This document shows positions 13,939 through 63,735 of a DNA stretch of 64,000 nt, piece by piece. The DNA comes from an uncultured Gammaproteobacteria bacterium (GTDB taxonomy: Bacteria; Patescibacteriota; Patescibacteriia; UBA9934): the NCBI GenBank assembly GCA_964613815.1, contig CAZTKG010000001.1:136895-200894 (forward strand). Reading direction: 5' to 3'. The translations under genes were made by a program, and so were the position numbers. A model generated the notes under the pieces. The model did no database searches, had not been told where the DNA came from, and worked only from the letters and a program-made list of their open reading frames with translations. Numbering within the stretch: position 1 is the first letter of the stretch; each line of letters opens with the position of its first letter.

Positions 13939-13987
13939 ACAATTTACCCTCCCATCTCGACCCTGCGGAGAGATCTCTCCATAAGGT
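13939..13987. repeat. REP-A palindromic element, short form (CTCCCATCTCGACCCTGCGGAGAGATCTCTCCATAAGGTCGAGATGGGAA)
   Basis: Inverted repeat sharing the CCCATCTCGACC...GGTCGAGATGGG arms with 14 other copies in the window. Confidence 0.85.
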
Positions 13988-14013
13988 CGAGATGGGAACG
14001 AAGGAGCTGTGTT

Positions 14014-16234: not shown

Positions 16235-16312
16235 TCCCATCTCGACCTTGCGGAGAGATCTCTTCGGATGCCGGATACTGCAAGATCTCTCCGCAAGGTC
16301 GAGATGGGGGGG
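16235..16312. repeat. REP-A palindromic element
   Basis: CCCATCTCGACCTTGCGGAGAGATCT...AGATCTCTCCGCAAGGTCGAGATGGG with an about 25-nt central spacer. Confidence 0.85.
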
Positions 16313-17586: not shown

Positions 17587-18573
17587 CTAGAGGAAATTTG
17601 GCTCAGATTCGATCCCTTGTCGGTGTTTTTTGCGCATACCGGCGCCGATCGCTGCGAGGAATTTGTGGGTCATTTGAGGCTCTACGTCTGGGAGGGCCAT
17701 GAGGGCTCCTACCTGTTCGATGTCGGTATCGAGGATGGCGCCCTGACATGCCGCGAGCGTTTTTTCTGTTGAAGCCTCTGTTCCGGCGAGGATGAGTTTA
17801 GGAATGGTGAACTTGCGTTTTTTGAGGAAAGTCATGGTCTCGTTGACGGCGTCTGTGATCGATTTGAGCATATCTGCGTCGAGCTGGATCAGCTCCCCTG
17901 TTCCGGTATCTGTGTGAGGCCGAATAGCCATTGAGCGAGAGAAAATGGCGAGACCGTGACGATTGTAAACGACGATGTTGATCCATCTGTAGCCGATGTC
18001 AACGAGGAGATCTACTTGCGTTTCTGGGTATGCTTTAGCTGGATCGCCGAGAACTGGAAGAAGTGCCCTGTAGATTGACATGTGTGCCGGTTCTGCAAAT
18101 TCTAAGGTGATCTGTGGATTGTGGATGACGATCTGCTCGTAGGCCTGCACGATTTCTTTTTGGATCGCAAAAAGTCCAACCATTGGGGTTTCTCCGCGTT
18201 CTGGCTTGGGGACATAGACGCCCACGCTTGATTTTTGGAAGGGGATCGGAATTTTTTGCTGCGCGCGTTTTTTGAGGTCTGGAATTTGGTCCTCTACCCT
18301 CCCCTCTGCTGCGCGGAAGCTTGCGGAGAAGGCTCTTGATTCGGGGATGATGAGGGTCGCGCCTGCGGACTTTGTGGCGATTTTCCCGGATGTGAAGAGC
18401 TCGGTGACTAAGTCCGCTGCGCGTTTTGGATTGATGACACGGTCGTCGATGATGTCGCCGTGTGGAATGACGACTTCATGCAGACCCTTTAAGCTCAGCG
18501 AGGAGCTGAGATGTGCAAGGCGGACGTGATGATCTGAAATTTCGATCCCGATTCTGTCTTGAAAAAGCTTCAT
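17587..18573 (-). CDS. pilM: Type IV pilus assembly protein PilM-like (actin-like ATPase fold)
   Basis: Start taken at MKLFQDRIGIEISDHHVRLAHL (ATG 18573, ATGA-coupled to the upstream ORF). The ORF track carries a 73-aa Arg-rich extension that looks like out-of-context sequence. Length and position in the pilus operon fit PilM. Confidence 0.65.
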   Translation of the reverse strand: MKLFQDRIGIEISDHHVRLAHLSSSLSLKGLHEVVIPHGDIIDDRVINPKRAADLVTELFTSGKIATKSAGATLIIPESRAFSASFRAAEGRVEDQIPDLKKRAQQKIPIPFQKSSVGVYVPKPERGETPMVGLFAIQKEIVQAYEQIVIHNPQITLEFAEPAHMSIYRALLPVLGDPAKAYPETQVDLLVDIGYRWINIVVYNRHGLAIFSRSMAIRPHTDTGTGELIQLDADMLKSITDAVNETMTFLKKRKFTIPKLILAGTEASTEKTLAACQGAILDTDIEQVGALMALPDVEPQMTHKFLAAIGAGMRKKHRQGIESEPNFL

Positions 18574-19019
18574 AGCTCTTGCCAGGTTAGCATGCCGATA
18601 TCGCCCGACATGTTGGCGGTTATTTCTATTTCTTCTGTGTAGTTGTCGATGGTTGCCTGCGCGCGGATCGTGCATGTCCCTGCGCATGGCGCGCCGATCA
18701 CCTGCATGGTGCAATACCCTTCCCCGACCGCGAATGATCCTCCTGTGTAGTCTGGGTTGCGGTAAACGCCGAGCATTGCCTCGCGCGCGCACGTCTCTGC
18801 CATGAGTGAGGCGTAGAGCCCCTGCTTGGCATTGAGGCCCGTTTCTAGGTTTGTGGTTGCAGATATTCCCACAGCGAACATGAAGAGGAAGATGAGGGCT
18901 GTGAACGCGAAAATAGCGAGCAAGCCTGCACTGCCGCCCTGGCTAGTCTTGATCGATTGGAATGCGGATTGCTGTCTGGAATTCCTGCTCGAATTGGTAA
19001 TAAGGTCCGTTGCCTCCAT
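18570..19019 (-). CDS. Membrane protein within the pilus operon (possibly PilN/PilO/ComGG-like), hypothetical
   Basis: One TM helix (LLAIFAFTALIFLFMFAVGI) and a Cys-containing periplasmic domain. The 5' end overlaps the minor pilin gene, so the true start is probably an internal TTG near 18921. Confidence 0.4.
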   Translation of the reverse strand: MEATDLITNSSRNSRQQSAFQSIKTSQGGSAGLLAIFAFTALIFLFMFAVGISATTNLETGLNAKQGLYASLMAETCAREAMLGVYRNPDYTGGSFAVGEGYCTMQVIGAPCAGTCTIRAQATIDNYTEEIEITANMSGDIGMLTWQEL

Positions 19020-25443: not shown

Positions 25444-25480
25444 CCCCTCCCATCTCGACCTTGTGGAGAGATCTTTTACT
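25444..25480. repeat. REP-A half element (left arm only), fused to the REP-B copy that follows
   Basis: CCCCTCCCATCTCGACCTTGTGGAGAGATCT with no matching right arm; immediately followed by CCCATCCTGAGG... Confidence 0.7.
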
Positions 25481-25612
25481 CCCATCCTGAGGAGAGGGCG
25501 TGAAGGCGATGGACGGAAGGATCTCACGGCACGGCGCACTCTTTCGGCATGGACGTTGCTGTCCGCACGGGATCCTTCCGTCGCGCTAGGGCTGGCGCGA
25601 CTCAGGATGAGG
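25481..25612. repeat. REP-B palindromic element (about 130 nt, nested inverted repeats: CCCATCCTGAGGAG...GACGGAAGGATCTC...GGGATCCTTCCGTCG...CTCAGGATGAGGG)
   Basis: Intergenic between rpoD and pilB. Homologous to copies at 42153, 48640 and 50047. Confidence 0.8.
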
Positions 25613-25649
25613 GATTGTGGAAGAAAAAAATGCCTTTCGGCATGTTTTT

Positions 25650-35037: not shown

Positions 35038-35115
35038 TTTTCCCATCTCGACCTTGTGGAAAGATCTTGCTGCTATTCGAGTTCTCGGAGATCTCTCCAC
35101 AAGGTCGAGATGGAA
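35038..35115. repeat. REP-A palindromic element (preceded by a partial duplicate arm at 35015-35037)
   Basis: TCCCATCTCGACCTTGTGGAAAGATCT...AGATCTCTCCACAAGGTCGAGATGGAACG. Confidence 0.85.
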
Positions 35116-35718: not shown

Positions 35719-35783
35719 TCCCATCTCGACCTTGTGGAGAGATCTGATGGCTGCAGGATCTCTCCACAAGGTCGAGATGGGAG
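35719..35783. repeat. REP-A palindromic element between convergent genes
   Basis: CCCATCTCGACCTTGTGGAGAGATCTGATGGCTGCAGGATCTCTCCACAAGGTCGAGATGGGAGG. Confidence 0.85.
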
Positions 35784-36864: not shown

Positions 36865-37057
36865 CCTCCCGTTTGGGTGGTTTTTTGATCTGATGGGATC
36901 AGATCAACCCTTCGTAGCTCGCAGAGCGCCTGCCCTTCGAAGCTTCAGCGAAGAATGGGAAGAACGGGTCCCCTCTTTTTTTTACAGAGCTCCTCATATT
37001 GACAAATCACCTATTCCCTACTATGGTTCTTCTCCGTTCATTCAAATGGGAGAGCAA

Positions 37058-41461: not shown

Positions 41462-42682
41462 TTATTTTTGGATAATTGCTGAGCCAATGAGCTCATCTTC
41501 TTTGTAAAATGCGACAAACTGCCCTGGGGCGACTGCCCATTGCGGGACCTTGAATGTGACAGTGAGTTGATCTTCGATGAATTGGTATTCGCAGTCTTGC
41601 AGCTCCTGACGATAACGAATGCGGGCTTTAAGGGGAGTGTTTTGGTTGGTTTTGATGGCGCCCTTGGTTGTTTCTGTGATGTTTGTTGCAATGATCGTCG
41701 TCTTGAGGAGGATTTGATCTTCGCGATGCACTACAACGAGCTCGTTTGTGCCTGGACGTTTTTCTGCCACGTAAAGAGGATCACCGCCGCCAATGCCGAG
41801 GCCGTGGCGTTGGCCGATGGTGTAGTAGGCGTGGCCCTTGTGGGTTCCGAGGATGTCGCCGGCGGCGTTGATGATGTTTCCTGGTGATGGCGGGATTTGG
41901 TCGCTGAGGAATTCTTCTAGGGTGATGTGACCGACGAAGCAGAGGCCTTGGCTATCCTTCTTTGTTGCGACGGATAGGCTGTGCGTCTCTGCGATGCTGC
42001 GGACTTCTGATTTTTCGATGTTACCGATTGGGAACATCACTTTTTTTAGTTGGTCTTGCGTGAGACGGCAAAGGAAGTAGGATTGGTCCTTGTTTTTGTC
42101 GATACCAGCGAGGAGGTGGACTAGCTCACCTCCTTCCGATGCGCCTTCTCCTCTCCCATCCTGAGGAGGGGGATAGTTGCCCCCGACGGAAAGATCTTGT
42201 GCGGATGGCAACGTCCCTGCCGCGCGGCATGAGATCCTTCCGTCCGTCGGCTGGCGCTCTCCCTCCTCAGGATAGGAGGCAATATCAGCTGCGTTGAGTA
42301 TGCGCGCGTAGTGGCCTGTTGCGAGATAGTCGCAGCCCAAATCCTCTAACTGATCGAGAAGAAGGCCGAACTTCATATATTGATTACAGAGCACGTCTGG
42401 ATTTGGTGTTCGGCCGGCGGCGTATTCGTCTACCATGTATTGATAGACTTTTTCGCGGTACTGCTCTTCGAAGTCGAAGGTGTGGAGCTCGATATCTAAT
42501 TGCGCGGCAACCCGCATCGCATCTCGACGCTCTGCACGCCAAGTACATTCGCTGCCTGGGATGTTTTCTGACCAGTTTTTCATGAACGCGCCGACGACCT
42601 CGTAACCTTGTTCCAATAGCAAAACAGCCGACACACTTGAGTCGACGCCACCGCTCATAGCCAGGAGAACGCGTTTTTTCAT
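41462..42682 (-). CDS. mnmA: tRNA-specific 2-thiouridylase MnmA, carrying an in-frame REP-B insertion
   Basis: PP-loop LAMSGGVDSSV; conserved ...LATGHYARI and ...KNKDQSYFLCRL. Between them lies about 45 aa (DIASYPEEGERQPTDGRISCRAAGTLPSAQDLSVGGNYPPPQDGRGEGASEGG) that is the translation of REP-B. Confidence 0.85.
   Translation of the reverse strand: MKKRVLLAMSGGVDSSVSAVLLLEQGYEVVGAFMKNWSENIPGSECTWRAERRDAMRVAAQLDIELHTFDFEEQYREKVYQYMVDEYAAGRTPNPDVLCNQYMKFGLLLDQLEDLGCDYLATGHYARILNAADIASYPEEGERQPTDGRISCRAAGTLPSAQDLSVGGNYPPPQDGRGEGASEGGELVHLLAGIDKNKDQSYFLCRLTQDQLKKVMFPIGNIEKSEVRSIAETHSLSVATKKDSQGLCFVGHITLEEFLSDQIPPSPGNIINAAGDILGTHKGHAYYTIGQRHGLGIGGGDPLYVAEKRPGTNELVVVHREDQILLKTTIIATNITETTKGAIKTNQNTPLKARIRYRQELQDCEYQFIEDQLTVTFKVPQWAVAPGQFVAFYKEDELIGSAIIQK
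42153..42279. repeat. REP-B palindromic element inserted in-frame inside mnmA
   Basis: TCCCATCCTGAGGAGGGGG...GACGGAAAGATCTTGTGCGGATGGCAACGTCCCTGCCGCGCGGCATGAGATCCTTCCGTCCGTCGG...CCTCCTCAGGATAGGAGG. Confidence 0.85.
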
Positions 42683-42727
42683 AGTTTGAGATGATAGCTT
42701 GGATTTTGATGTTTGGCAACTGCCTCA

Positions 42728-42800
42728 CTCCCATCTCGACCTTGTGGAGGGATCTGATTGCGGCAGGTGCAAGATCTCTCCACAAGGTCGAGATGGGAGG
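42728..42800. repeat. REP-A palindromic element
   Basis: TCCCATCTCGACCTTGTGGAGGGATCTGATTGCGGCAGGTGCAAGATCTCTCCACAAGGTCGAGATGGGAGG. Confidence 0.85.
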
Positions 42801-43401: not shown

Positions 43402-43475
43402 TCCCGGATCGTCTAACGGCAGGACACCAGGTTCTGGTCCTGGTAATCGGGGTTCGAGTCCCTGTCCGGGAACCA
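43402..43475 (+). tRNA. tRNA-Gln (anticodon CUG), CCA encoded
   Basis: Manual cloverleaf. Acceptor TCCCGGA/TCCGGGA. D-arm GTCT-AACGGCA-GGAC. Anticodon arm CCAGG-TTCTGGT-CCTGG (anticodon CTG). T-arm CGGGG-TTCGAGT-CCCTG. Discriminator A, then CCA. Confidence 0.75.
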
Positions 43476-43538: not shown

Positions 43539-43612
43539 TTCCCATCTCGACCTTGTGGAGAGATCTTTGGATTTCGGAGGCTACAGGATCTCTCCACAAG
43601 GTCGAGATGGGA
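43539..43612. repeat. REP-A palindromic element
   Basis: CCCATCTCGACCTTGTGGAGAGATCTTTGGATTTCGGAGGCTACAGGATCTCTCCACAAGGTCGAGATGGGAG. Confidence 0.85.
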
Positions 43613-43677: not shown

Positions 43678-43905
43678 ATGCGACAAGTTGTCAGCCTCTC
43701 TTTAGCTCCCGCAGATGTCAAAAAACTCAAAAGGCGCGTGAAGGAGCGTGGCCTTGCTTCATCTAGCGCATATGTGAAGCAGCTCCTCGACGAAGACGAG
43801 AATCTCATCTCCGCAGACGAGCTTGAATCCATCATTAAAGAAGGAGATGCAGAGTATGATCGCGGAGAGACGGTTTCTGCAAAATCTGTTCTCGATCTTC
43901 TATGA
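43678..43905 (+). CDS. Type II antitoxin (RelB/ParD/Phd-like, 75 aa)
   Basis: Small acidic protein immediately upstream of, and ATGA-overlapping, a RelE/ParE-like toxin. AT-rich. Confidence 0.55.
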   Translation: MRQVVSLSLAPADVKKLKRRVKERGLASSSAYVKQLLDEDENLISADELESIIKEGDAEYDRGETVSAKSVLDLL

Positions 43906-44174
43906 TCGTTCGTGATATTAAATTCACAAAAAGATTTATCAAGGACCTCTCTGGGCTCAGTGAGACTGATCGTGACTTAGTTGCGAAAAAGGAGTCTATC
44001 TTTAGATCCAACCCCCTTCATCCTTCTCTTCGGCTTCATCGACTCAAGGGCAATTTGTCTGGCGTGTGGTCTATTTCTGTGACAAATAAGATTCGCATAA
44101 TTTTCAAACGGAAGGACGGAGGAGTTATCCTGTTTTACTCTGTTGGAAAACACGACATTTACAAAAACCTATAA
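43902..44174 (+). CDS. Type II toxin, RelE/ParE superfamily (90 aa)
   Basis: HRLKGNLSGVWSISVTNKIRIIFKRKDGGVILFYSVGKHDIY matches the RelE/ParE C-terminal fold signature (h.LkG...W..R...YRiiY...). Confidence 0.7.
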   Translation: MIVRDIKFTKRFIKDLSGLSETDRDLVAKKESIFRSNPLHPSLRLHRLKGNLSGVWSISVTNKIRIIFKRKDGGVILFYSVGKHDIYKNL

Positions 44175-46076: not shown

Positions 46077-46192
46077 AATGCGTCTGCGTGTCATCCTGAG
46101 GCACGAAGGACCCATTCGGTTGGCACTACCTATATCGGTCGACGTCGATCGTGGGCACGTATGCAGCCGAATGGATCCTTCGTGCCTCAGGA
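46077..46192. repeat. REP-C palindromic element (GTCATCCTGAGGCACGAAGGACCCATTCGG...CCGAATGGATCCTTCGTGCCTCAGGATGAC), a full long inverted repeat
   Basis: About 21-bp perfect terminal arms plus inner CATTCGG/CCGAATG arms. Related to REP-B (shared CATCCTGAGG core) and to partial copies at 58940 and 62868. Confidence 0.8.
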
Positions 46193-46223
46193 TGACACAG
46201 GGAGGATCTGCTATAATCCACGC

Positions 46224-48294: not shown

Positions 48295-50010
48295 CTAATC
48301 CACCACACTCCCTCCAAACGCTAACGCGAGGTCGTGGAGGTTTTTTTCGTCTTCTGAGAGTTCGAGGATTGGTTCGATTTTCACGGAGCCCTGCATGACC
48401 TTGCCTACCGCTTCTTCGATGATGTCGAGATGCTTGCGGGCGTTACAGGTTTCGAAGTGAAACGCGTGCGTGAATGAGAGGACAACGACGTTTCCTCGGA
48501 TAGATGTTGGCTTTGCGGACTTGAGGACTAAGGGTAGGGCAACGCTTCTTTTCGCGACCAGCTCGCAGCAGCGGCCCCATTTTGCGGCAAGGTCTTCTGC
48601 GGTGAATTTGGCTAGCGGGGCTTCATCTGTTGTTTTTTTTTGAGGTTCTTCATTCCCGTCCTGAGGAGGGAGAGCTGAGCCGACTGACGGAAGGATCTCT
48701 TCCGACTTCCCCATATCGACCGGTGTGGAGATATCTTGCATTTTGGCCGCGGCCTGAGATCTCTCCGCAGGGTCGAGATAGGAGGCGGGAGTTTGTGTTG
48801 GCGGTGATGACTGCGGCGATCGTGATGGCTGTGCCGCGTGGGGGGAGATCCTTCCGTCGAGGGGGGTATCCCTCGACTCAGGATGGGAGGGAGGCGGAGA
48901 CTGTGTCGGTGATAGCAGCTGTGCTGACCCTTCTTCCTCGCAGAATTCTACAAATGCAATTTCTATTGGGAGCTGTGGGAAGAGCTCGTGTGCCGGTCTT
49001 GATCTTGCGGTGAGCAGGAGGTCGATGAGTTTTCTTGCGCGTGCGGACGGGAGCGCGGTTGCGGATGATTTGAGGTTTGCGAGCGCTTGTTCGTCGTAGC
49101 GTTCTGAAAGGTTGCCTCCGAGGCCGGTGAGCATGACGTCGCGGACGTATTCGATGAGTTCGTCGAGGAGGTGGCGGACGGAGGTACCTGCTGCTGTGGC
49201 CTCGGTGAGCTTGTCGATGGAGGCTTTTGCGTCCGATGTGGCGAGGGTTGTGGTCATTTGTGCAACGAGATCGGCGTGGGTCTTTGGAAGGACAAGCGAG
49301 GCGTCGTCTGTGGATATCTCGTCGAGGCCGAGTGCGAGGACCTGTTCGAGGATGCTTTCTGCGTCTCGGAGGCAGCCTTCTGAAAGGCGGGCGATGGATG
49401 GGTAGACTTCGTCGGCGATCTTGACACCTTCTTTTTCTGACAGCAGCTTTAGGCGACCGATCATGCCTTTCATGGAGATTCTGTGAAAATCAAAACGCTG
49501 ACATCTGGAAAGGATGGTTTGCGGGATTTTGTGGAGCTCGGTTGTGGCGAGGATGAAGATAACGTGTGCTGGAGGTTCTTCGAGGGTTTTGAGGAGGGCG
49601 TTGAACGCTGAGGTTGAAAGCATGTGGACCTCGTCGATGATGAAGACTTTTTTGCGATCTCCGCCTGGAGAGACGCGGGCGGCTTCGATGATGTTTTCTC
49701 GGACGTTGTCGACACCTGTGTGAGACGCGGCGTCGATTTCTGCGACGACCATTGTTCGGCCGTTTGTAATGCCTTCGCAGGACTGGCACGTACCGCAGGG
49801 CTCGTAGCCGTCTTTTAGCTCTCCGCAGTTGACGGCTTTTGCGAGGAGGCGGGCCGTGGTCGTCTTCCCTACTCCGCGCGGGCCGGAGAAAATGTAGGCA
49901 TGAGCGACTTTGTCTTGTTTTATTTGGTTTTGAATGGTTTTGGAGACGTGCTCTTGGCCGCAGACGTCTGCGAATGTTTGTGGGCGGTATTTTCGATAGA
50001 GTGAAGGCAT
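48295..50010 (-). CDS. dnaX: DNA polymerase III subunit gamma/tau DnaX, carrying in-frame REP-B plus nested REP-A insertions in the linker region
   Basis: Start MPSLYRKYRPQTFADVCGQEHV (ATG 50010; the track ORF extends 52 codons into the upstream REP-B). Walker A GPRGVGKTT, Zn module CGTCQSC, SRC motif, conserved C-terminal domain. About 88 aa of translated repeat sits between domain III and the C-terminal domain. Confidence 0.85.
   Translation of the reverse strand: MPSLYRKYRPQTFADVCGQEHVSKTIQNQIKQDKVAHAYIFSGPRGVGKTTTARLLAKAVNCGELKDGYEPCGTCQSCEGITNGRTMVVAEIDAASHTGVDNVRENIIEAARVSPGGDRKKVFIIDEVHMLSTSAFNALLKTLEEPPAHVIFILATTELHKIPQTILSRCQRFDFHRISMKGMIGRLKLLSEKEGVKIADEVYPSIARLSEGCLRDAESILEQVLALGLDEISTDDASLVLPKTHADLVAQMTTTLATSDAKASIDKLTEATAAGTSVRHLLDELIEYVRDVMLTGLGGNLSERYDEQALANLKSSATALPSARARKLIDLLLTARSRPAHELFPQLPIEIAFVEFCEEEGSAQLLSPTQSPPPSHPESRDTPLDGRISPHAAQPSRSPQSSPPTQTPASYLDPAERSQAAAKMQDISTPVDMGKSEEILPSVGSALPPQDGNEEPQKKTTDEAPLAKFTAEDLAAKWGRCCELVAKRSVALPLVLKSAKPTSIRGNVVVLSFTHAFHFETCNARKHLDIIEEAVGKVMQGSVKIEPILELSEDEKNLHDLALAFGGSVVD
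48640..48905. repeat. Composite repeat inside dnaX: REP-B left arm (48640-48710), a degenerate REP-A (48711-48784), about 60 nt, and the REP-B right arm (about 48845-48905)
   Basis: TCCTGAGGAGGGAGAGCTGAGCCGACTGACGGAAGGATCTC | CCCATATCGACCGGTGTGGAGATATCT...AGATCTCTCCGCAGGGTCGAGATAGG | ...GAGATCCTTCCGTCGAGGGGGGTATCCCTCGACTCAGGATGGGAGGG. Confidence 0.8.
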
Positions 50011-50046
50011 AGATGATGGGAGTTTAACATATCCTTCCGCGTCGAC

Positions 50047-50190
50047 CGAGTCTGACATGCCTCCCATCCTGAGGAAGGAGAGCGCCAGCCGACGGACGGA
50101 AGGATCTCGTGCCGCGCGGCATGGACGTCGATGTCCGCACGGGATCCTTCCGTCGGGGGCGGCCATCCCCCTCCTCAGGATGGGAGCTCA
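50047..50190. repeat. REP-B palindromic element in the dnaX 5' leader
   Basis: CCTCCCATCCTGAGGAAGGAGAGCGCCAGCCGACGGACGGAAGGATCTCGTGCCGCGCGGCATGGACGTCGATGTCCGCACGGGATCCTTCCGTCGGGGGCGGCCATCCCCCTCCTCAGGATGGGAGC. Confidence 0.8.
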
Positions 50191-53002: not shown

Positions 53003-53078
53003 CCCCCATCTCGACCTTGTGGAGAGATCTTGCAGTCCTGCCGTGATCAGATCTCTCCACAAGGTCGAGATGGGAGCG
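53003..53078. repeat. REP-A palindromic element between convergent genes
   Basis: CCCCCATCTCGACCTTGTGGAGAGATCTTGCAGTCCTGCCGTGATCAGATCTCTCCACAAGGTCGAGATGGGAGCGG. Confidence 0.85.
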
Positions 53079-58939: not shown

Positions 58940-59010
58940 GGTGATTTTTTATATGCCGGGGGCATATAAACCCTTCGTAGCTCTACGAGCGAAGAACGGG
59001 TGGACACCCC
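58940..59010. repeat. REP-C partial copy in reverse orientation (TTTTTTATATGCCGGGGGCATATAAACCCTTCGTAGCTCTACGAGCGAAGAACGGGTGG)
   Basis: Its reverse complement aligns, at about 80 percent identity, to 62890-62950 (CCATTCTTCGCTGAAGCTTCGAAGGGTTCATATGCCCCCGGCATATGAAAAAAATCACC). Confidence 0.65.
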
Positions 59011-62867: not shown

Positions 62868-62950
62868 TCATCCTGAGGCACGGAGGATCCATTCTTCGCT
62901 GAAGCTTCGAAGGGTTCATATGCCCCCGGCATATGAAAAAAATCACCACC
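62868..62950. repeat. REP-C partial copy (TGTCATCCTGAGGCACGGAGGATCCATTCTTCGCTGAAGCTTCGAAGGGTTCATATGCCCCCGGCATATG...)
   Basis: The left arm matches the REP-C at 46077. The inner part matches the inverted 58940 copy. Confidence 0.65.
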
Positions 62951-63659: not shown

Positions 63660-63735
63660 TCCCCATCTCGACCTTGTGGAGAGATCCTGCGCTCTTGATG
63701 ACCGCTAAGATCTCTCCACAAGGTCGAGATGGGAA
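63660..63735. repeat. REP-A palindromic element
   Basis: CCCCATCTCGACCTTGTGGAGAGATCCTGCGCTCTTGATGACCGCTAAGATCTCTCCACAAGGTCGAGATGGGAAGC. Confidence 0.85.

Follow-up and report, generated by a model that had tools for sequence, protein, structure and literature searches.

The mnmA gene in the window analysed here, a 64,000-nucleotide (nt) stretch of contig CAZTKG010000001.1 from a genome of the Patescibacteria (Candidate Phyla Radiation, CPR), carries inside its reading frame a copy of a palindromic element, REP-B, which is also found elsewhere in the same DNA. We consider that REP-B is probably a small non-autonomous palindromic repeat of this genome, and that one of its copies landed in mnmA, the gene for the tRNA 2-thiouridine(34) synthase. 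In the course of events that we propose, this copy would have inserted into the mnmA DNA encoding the turn of a β-hairpin, and would have been retained there by virtue of a length divisible by three, the lack of a stop codon in the frame in which it is read, and a product of ~43 Gly, Pro and charged residues that could be accommodated as a disordered loop at a length-tolerant position. Judging from the sequence, MnmA is most likely made with the insert and still active. The first-pass annotation of the window had described a palindromic element lying within the mnmA open reading frame (ORF) without breaking it; our analysis confirms this, with the span corrected to 42153-42281 and the length to 129 nt. 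It had also taken the segment for a repeated palindromic element rather than a native part of MnmA, a view borne out by the presence of four copies at unrelated loci and by the orthologs, which do not have the segment.

REP-B copies and the proteins that contain them

The copy of REP-B in mnmA reads ASYPEEGERQPTDGRISCRAAGTLPSAQDLSVGGNYPPPQDG and is 89% identical over 129 nt to the best-preserved copy of the window, 50058-50186, which lies on the opposite strand (Table 1). A profile built from these two sequences returned both of them (42152-42283, 152 bits; 50056-50188, 147 bits), together with a diverged intergenic copy (25475-25614, 64-104 bits) and a copy split into two arms (48650-48701 plus 48846-48889). 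The core of the element, CCCATCCTGAGGAGG, occurs 6 times in the window when up to 2 mismatches are allowed, versus 0.13 occurrences expected, and none of 100 shuffles reaches 6. The copies fold into nested hairpins of great stability, with -76.8 kcal/mol (z = -7.7) for the one in mnmA, -90.3 kcal/mol (z = -8.6) for that at 50058 and -66.4 kcal/mol (z = -4.5) for that at 25477; each was compared with 200 shuffles, no shuffle being as stable. The 129-nt core has 17-nt terminal inverted repeats at its two ends (CTCCCATCCTGAGGAGG / CCTCCTCAGGATGGGAG) and an inner stem, GACGGAAGGATC, that starts with GACG and ends with CGTC. REP-B matches no Rfam family, even at E <= 1, and no terminator-like signal was found at the element. 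The earlier statement that the repeat is present at several loci is therefore correct, although the copy that had been placed at 50047 and called intergenic begins at 50058, upstream of the probable start of dnaX, and is not simply intergenic.

The mnmA ORF contains no frameshifts or stops. In Pfam, its 406-amino-acid (aa) product matches the tRNA_Me_trans HUP domain (3.1e-75), the PRC-barrel (3.8e-20) and the C-terminal barrel (3.5e-16), and solved MnmA structures match it at E = 1e-83 to 1e-87. All columns that are invariant in 18 CPR MnmA sequences are retained across the 406 aa, including the PP-loop SGGVDSS and both catalytic cysteines (Cys99 and Cys248). A promoter-like site is present on the minus strand at 42719-42691, between the start codon of mnmA and a hairpin (42726..42800) of a second palindromic family, REP-A, described below. 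Calling mnmA essential, as had been done, is an overstatement, since the gene is dispensable in E. coli.

The closest homologs of this MnmA come from Patescibacteria/CPR bins, some of them named Uhrbacteria; they are typically ~357 aa long, and their identity to the window protein is at most 58% by BLAST and at most 66% in the alignment. The distance between the GHYAR and KDQ[ST]YFL motifs is 13-19 residues (mode 18) in 100 of the 120 closest homologs versus 70 residues in the window MnmA, which upholds the original placement of the insert, in frame, between GHYAR and KDQSYFL. Likewise, residues 132-186 of the window protein correspond to 3-4 residues in the solved structures 2hma and 9hlv. 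Relative to the orthologs the insert amounts to ~52 aa, 43 of which are contributed by the repeat, so that the initial estimate of ~45 residues was right in recognizing an in-frame extra segment and wrong about its size. An AlphaFold2 model of the protein (mean predicted local distance difference test, pLDDT, 80; predicted template modelling score, pTM, 0.79) is confident outside the insert; residues 137-184 have pLDDT < 50 and are flanked by hairpin strands 126-130 and 188-192. The model superposes on the MnmA structures of S. pneumoniae and E. coli (2hma and the tRNA co-crystals 2DER, 2DET and 2DEU) with target-normalised template modelling (TM) scores of 0.88-0.89 and root-mean-square deviations of 2.4-2.7 Å. 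In this model, then, the insert, for which disorder is predicted, takes the place of the turn of a β-hairpin within the N-terminal catalytic domain. This is in agreement with the suggestion made at the outset that the peptide forms a tolerated loop: it maps to a β-hairpin turn, it is predicted to lack order and the fold is kept in the model.

Extra residues at the tip of the same β-hairpin can be found in 16 of the 120 homologs, window MnmA (P0001) included. The 15 other Patescibacteria proteins (P0021, P0029, P0031, P0043, P0045, P0048, P0050, P0053, P0055, P0081, P0083, P0086, P0095, P0109 and P0119) have unrelated tip extensions of 7-58 aa. At the DNA level, six CPR tip inserts (loci L120, L121 and L128-L131) are GC-richer than their own genomes and all contain hairpin cores, as exemplified by ATCCCCGCGCAGGCGGGGAT in L128 and by a 75-nt hairpin in L121 (z = -3.9). 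Taken over their whole length, the inserts have fold z-scores of only -0.5 to -2.6, and the surrounding 10-21 kb yielded no second copy of any of them. The possibility, raised at first, that orthologs might carry the same segment in a non-palindromic form is not borne out: no ortholog has the segment, and the different CPR inserts at this site show a hairpin character of their own. One could speculate that GC-rich hairpin DNA has repeatedly landed, or been retained, at the MnmA hairpin tip across Patescibacteria, and that palindromic repeats have quite generally given rise to the lineage-specific insertions of CPR proteins. We regard this generalization as doubtful; were it true, REP-B in mnmA would represent the one case recent enough for its repeat family of origin to be still recognized. 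CPR MnmA proteins also display further insertion sites, after KNWS and in the C-terminal barrel. On the unrelated CPR contig L131, positions 18199-18837 encode a 212-aa protein with a weak match to Y1_Tnp (IS200/RAYT-like), ~7 kb from an mnmA with a tip insert.

The dnaX gene, encoding the tau/gamma subunit of the clamp loader, provides the second case of an in-frame copy, and the first-pass annotation was correct in reporting REP-B inside this gene, where it occupies a variable linker. The insert is a composite, 48653-48889 (237 nt, or 79 codons, in frame), in which a REP-A hairpin (about 48707-48785) is nested between the two REP-B arms. It is located between Pfam domain III, which ends at about residue 390, and DnaX_C (residues 522-601), in a linker that is Pro-rich and is variable in the ortholog too. 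The composite has 3 open frames versus 1.07 expected (P = 0.04). By the same logic as in mnmA, an older and now degraded REP-B copy may have been kept in this unstructured Pro-rich linker, the nested REP-A hairpin having probably arrived later. The element is read in opposite orientations in the two genes, as SYPEEGE...PPPQDG in MnmA and as its mirror, SHPES...LPPQDG, in DnaX; the two peptides are similar because REP-B is palindromically symmetric. Regarding the start of dnaX, a related CPR contig has a syntenic DnaX whose start aligns with Met53 of the window ORF, and therefore the copy at 50058 most likely lies in the dnaX leader. As the ORF extends into that copy, gene callers disagree on where dnaX begins (623 versus 590 aa); the longest dnaX ORF and one gene caller run right through it.

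Spread, mobility and competing explanations

REP-B is not abundant. Over ~81 kb, that is the window plus ~17 kb of flanking DNA, there are only four copies, two of them genic, and profile searches of the flanks added none. A census in which the six frame translations of REP-B, concatenated, were compared with 5.8 billion proteins, those of this genome included, returned MnmA only; degraded copies, like that in dnaX, would escape this census. The existence of many colonised proteins can thus be rejected for well-preserved copies, and the claim that in-frame insertion notably characterizes this genome and its proteins is not supported, given four copies in ~81 kb and a census that found MnmA alone. 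Pattern scans yielded 64 single matches in GTDB representative genomes, against an estimate of ~56 by chance, and 54 in metagenome contigs, in unrelated taxa; by profile search none of the matches was full-length, the best one scoring 17.7 bits versus 64-152 for real copies. The negative outcome of the metagenome scan is weak evidence, as it missed the JGI contig Ga0115650_1000592 (L123), where the exact pattern is found at 636 and 7247. The metagenome collection is therefore incomplete for this lineage, and the negative scans need caution.

There is also little in the element that suggests selection for coding. REP-B copies have 3-4 of their 6 frames open (4 of 6 in the copy at 50058), as predicted from composition (P = 0.38-0.44), which leads us to reject a coding-friendly design and to set aside the special coding compatibility that had been implied. 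Comparison of the mnmA copy with that at 50058 shows 14 differences, which fall evenly on the three codon positions (5/5/4); 10 of the 14 are non-synonymous. From its sequence, REP-B appears to be a family of few copies that shows no adaptation to coding, and those of its copies that lie in genes seem to be the rare ones to have passed a selection filter, which would require a multiple-of-three length, the absence of stops and a permissive loop.

Misassembly, suggested earlier as a possible source of error, was checked by comparison with independent assemblies, and no assembly error was found. A region of 21.8 kb around mnmA (about 27738-49519 of the window; L123-L126) is 100% identical in four other assemblies (JGI 3300008954; ERZ23498905, a 579-kb scaffold; ERZ23498677; and ERZ23499077), three of them from samples other than that of the source contig, with two sample series represented. 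This identity indicates, as far as sequence can tell, a clonal population recurring across samples. The mnmA gene is identical over its 1221 nt in the four, with mnmA on both sides of the element in the same frame; differences in gene calls among these identical assemblies are due to the use of different gene callers. LepA and other neighbour proteins have identical sequences on 11-15 contigs from several samples. Further, there are 14 mismatches in 129 positions between the mnmA copy and its closest paralog, so that it is neither a collapsed nor a borrowed copy. Short-read assemblies are indeed broken by repeats, and the end of one Logan contig (SRR9166044) falls within the REP-B element; against the evidence above, a repeat wrongly threaded into mnmA is hardly credible.

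Several observations weigh against insertion of a mobile repeat, or complicate it. No target-site duplication could be detected at any of the four copies, whose flanks share no direct repeat, and no transposase or RAYT was found among the Pfam-annotated genes over the ~81 kb; the absence of a recognized transposase means that mobility is deduced only from the dispersed copies. On the left side, the similarity between the mnmA and 50058 copies continues for ~15 nt past the 129-nt core (42284-42300 and 50040-50057; CTGAYAT(T)GCC), so the boundaries of REP-B are not certain by ~15 nt on one side. In addition, ~9 extra residues (RGEGASEGG) just 3' of the element are not explained by the repeat; they are encoded by a purine-rich stretch of ~27 nt (42120-42152) that is extra relative to the orthologs. 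Finally, no empty-site allele was found among the sister assemblies, which are all clonal, the next MnmA being at most 58-66% identical. With these points in mind, we infer from the sequence that the copy in mnmA was inserted by transposition, that the segment is presumably translated and not removed, and that the peptide is probably functionally neutral.

An alternative in which the element is present in the gene and absent from the protein deserves attention. A normal-length MnmA could result from removal at the mRNA level, as an intervening sequence or through RNase III-type processing and religation, or from programmed translational bypassing, for which there are precedents: GC-rich palindromic inserts are bypassed during translation in T4 gene 60 and in the 'byp' elements of yeast (Magnusiomyces) mitochondria. 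The sense transcript of the mnmA copy would form a very stable hairpin (-77 kcal/mol, z = -7.7), and the open frame is weak evidence for translation, since about half to two thirds of random insertions would be stop-free anyway. However, both genic copies are a multiple of three and stop-free, which would be unnecessary if the segment were removed, and the 237-nt dnaX composite stays open where 1.07 open frames are expected (P = 0.04). Nor is there a match to any intron or ribozyme family or a stop after a take-off site; matched take-off and landing codons were not noticed, and the insertions of Rickettsia palindromic elements (RPEs) are described in review as translational fusions with the host ORF. 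We therefore deem removal or bypassing unlikely. The open frame would be incidental if mnmA were inactivated, the insertion being a tolerated lesion in a decaying or unneeded gene. CPR genomes are reduced and have lost many functions, an open frame after random insertion is likely (3-4 of 6 frames), and the insert sits in the catalytic domain. Set against this are the retention of every residue invariant in CPR MnmA, catalytic ones among them, the absence of frameshifts and stops, a model that is confident outside the insert, a hairpin-tip site at which 16 of 120 homologs have additional residues and a promoter-like site ahead of the start codon, all of which make inactivation quite improbable.

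It could also be argued that the segment is native to the MnmA of this lineage, the other copies having arisen by gene conversion or duplication and not from a mobile element. The lack of an empty-site allele among the assemblies compared would fit, as would the unrelated extensions that other CPR MnmA proteins have at the hairpin, which show that the loop can grow in other ways. But a near-perfect nested palindrome has no reason to exist in a coding loop, the best-preserved copy is a non-coding one (50058), the copies stand in unrelated genic and intergenic contexts and nest with REP-A, whose termini are the same, and the peptide shows no constraint. A native origin is, in our opinion, very improbable, and the arrival of a dispersed palindromic repeat in mnmA is the reading we prefer.

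Other palindromes and neighbouring genes

REP-A (CCCATCTCGACCTTGTGGAGAGATC ... GATCTCTCCACAAGGTCGAGATGGG) is a second palindromic family, more abundant than REP-B, with 21 half-sites in the window, nearly all of them intergenic or at the extreme 5' ends of over-extended ORFs (examples in Table 1). The terminal motif CCCATC...GATGGG is common to both families, suggesting that one and the same machinery might mobilise REP-A and REP-B. The two also occur side by side: the REP-B copy at 25477-25611 directly abuts a REP-A half-site at 25449-25473.

Table 1. Coordinates of mnmA, dnaX, the REP-B copies and representative REP-A sites in the window
Feature	Coordinates	Strand	Remarks
mnmA	41462..42682	minus	tRNA 2-thiouridine(34) synthase; intact 406-aa ORF with insert
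REP-B copy in mnmA	42153..42281	minus	129 nt = 43 codons; gene nt 402-530; residues about 135-176
REP-B, best-preserved copy	50058..50186	plus	5' leader of dnaX, upstream of probable start Met53
REP-B, diverged copy	25477..25611	plus	gap between pilB-like gene and sigma-70 gene
REP-B, split copy in DnaX linker	48653..48889	minus	left arm 48653-48701, right arm 48846-48889
dnaX	48295..50010	minus	clamp-loader tau/gamma; probable true start Met53 of 623-aa ORF
REP-A hairpin	42726..42800		immediately upstream of mnmA start
REP-A site	13951-13996		
REP-A site	16236-16308		
REP-A site	35042-35114		
REP-A site	35720-35781		
REP-A site	42730-42797		
REP-A site	43541-43611		
REP-A site	53005-53074		
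REP-A site	63662-63733		

A third palindrome, at 46088-46198, has 35-nt arms that are 94% complementary, with a core (CATCCTGAGG) and an inner sequence (GAAGGATCC) resembling those of REP-B. It immediately precedes a DUF417-like gene, to which different callers assign 145, 166 or 214 aa. A family of small hairpins (TTTTTTATATGCCGGGGGCATATAAACCCTTCGTAGCT) is present at 36882-36928, 58945-58991 and 62903-62940, in both orientations and with a terminator-like look. Immediately past mnmA, a tRNA gene (43402-43472; Rfam, 55.8 bits) and a YafQ/HigB-like toxin with its antitoxin (43678-44174) have REP-A hairpins on their flanks.

Comparison with known repeats

In-frame insertions of repeats in bacterial genes have been documented for RPEs, for the enterobacterial ERIC/RU elements (Delihas 2007), for the pneumococcal BOX/RUP/SPRITE repeats (Croucher 2011) and for Coxiella QMITE2 (PMC5896051). 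No report of an in-frame palindromic repeat insertion in CPR/Patescibacteria was found in the literature searched. The RPEs, described by Ogata et al. in 2000 and 2002, amount to 44 in R. conorii and to 728 in R. felis, 85 of the latter within ORFs, according to the summaries given in PMC10969869, PMC3184786 and PMC1166351.

REP-B shares with the miniature inverted-repeat transposable elements (ERIC/RU, BOX/RUP/SPRITE, QMITE2) its short, non-autonomous nature, the terminal inverted repeats and the occasional presence in ORFs, to which residues are added. It differs from them in that those elements mostly lengthen genes at the 5' or 3' side or lie in hypothetical genes, whereas REP-B is internal to two conserved informational genes, and in that no target-site duplication was found at its copies, nor a cognate insertion sequence in the ~81 kb. 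Some likeness can also be seen with the REP/REPIN-RAYT systems (REP, repetitive extragenic palindrome), which comprise GC-rich hairpin families, several with common end motifs (Di Nocera et al. 2013, PMC3733652), and the inner stem GACG...CGTC of REP-B is reminiscent of the CGTC-tagged REPs (PMC3733652). Yet REPs are 20-40 nt long and extragenic by definition, while REP-B has 129 nt, nested stems and genic copies, and no RAYT/Y1 transposase was found in the 81 kb.

The inserts of T4 gene 60 and the 'byp' elements are, like REP-B, mobile hairpin-forming inserts in coding sequence; those interrupt the frame and need take-off and landing codons, whereas REP-B is in frame and stop-free, making bypass unnecessary. 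The insert does not have the features of an intein or of a self-splicing (group I/II) intron, as it has ~52 aa (inteins have at least ~130 aa), contains no Pfam domain and gives no Rfam match at E <= 1.

The insertion in mnmA illustrates a concrete route by which reduced genomes could gain disordered loops in conserved proteins. There is a hazard for annotation as well: the ORFs and start codons called for dnaX and for several further genes reach too far, into repeat DNA, and contigs end within the element.

The closest parallel is found in the RPEs, and the analogy with them, already drawn in the first-pass annotation, is apt as a description of behaviour. As in Rickettsia, we find palindromic repeats of roughly 105-150 nt, both intergenic and in frame in housekeeping genes, with a fold-compatible peptide and no associated transposase ORF, in a small reduced genome. 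REP-B has several of the attributes of an RPE-like class, namely a repeat at several loci, in-frame insertion and a fold-compatible loop position; it has neither pervasive genic copies nor a conserved peptide. Its four copies in ~81 kb, two of them genic, contrast with the 728 and 85 of R. felis, and its genic copies are read in mirror-image orientations, not in one conserved frame; there is no conserved peptide family. The host phylum, Patescibacteria, is unrelated to Rickettsia, and the likeness is one of behaviour; membership of REP-B in RPE families (1-10) is implausible because these are defined by sequence in Rickettsia. The REP-B insertion does not reveal a new mechanism, and it is a rare event in this genome and not a pervasive property. 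It is, rather, a type of event already known from Rickettsia, now seen in a new lineage with few copies, and as such it offers a clear-cut instance, outside Rickettsia, of how a selfish palindromic repeat survives within conserved informational genes, those of a tRNA-modifying enzyme and a clamp-loader subunit, in the poorly studied CPR.

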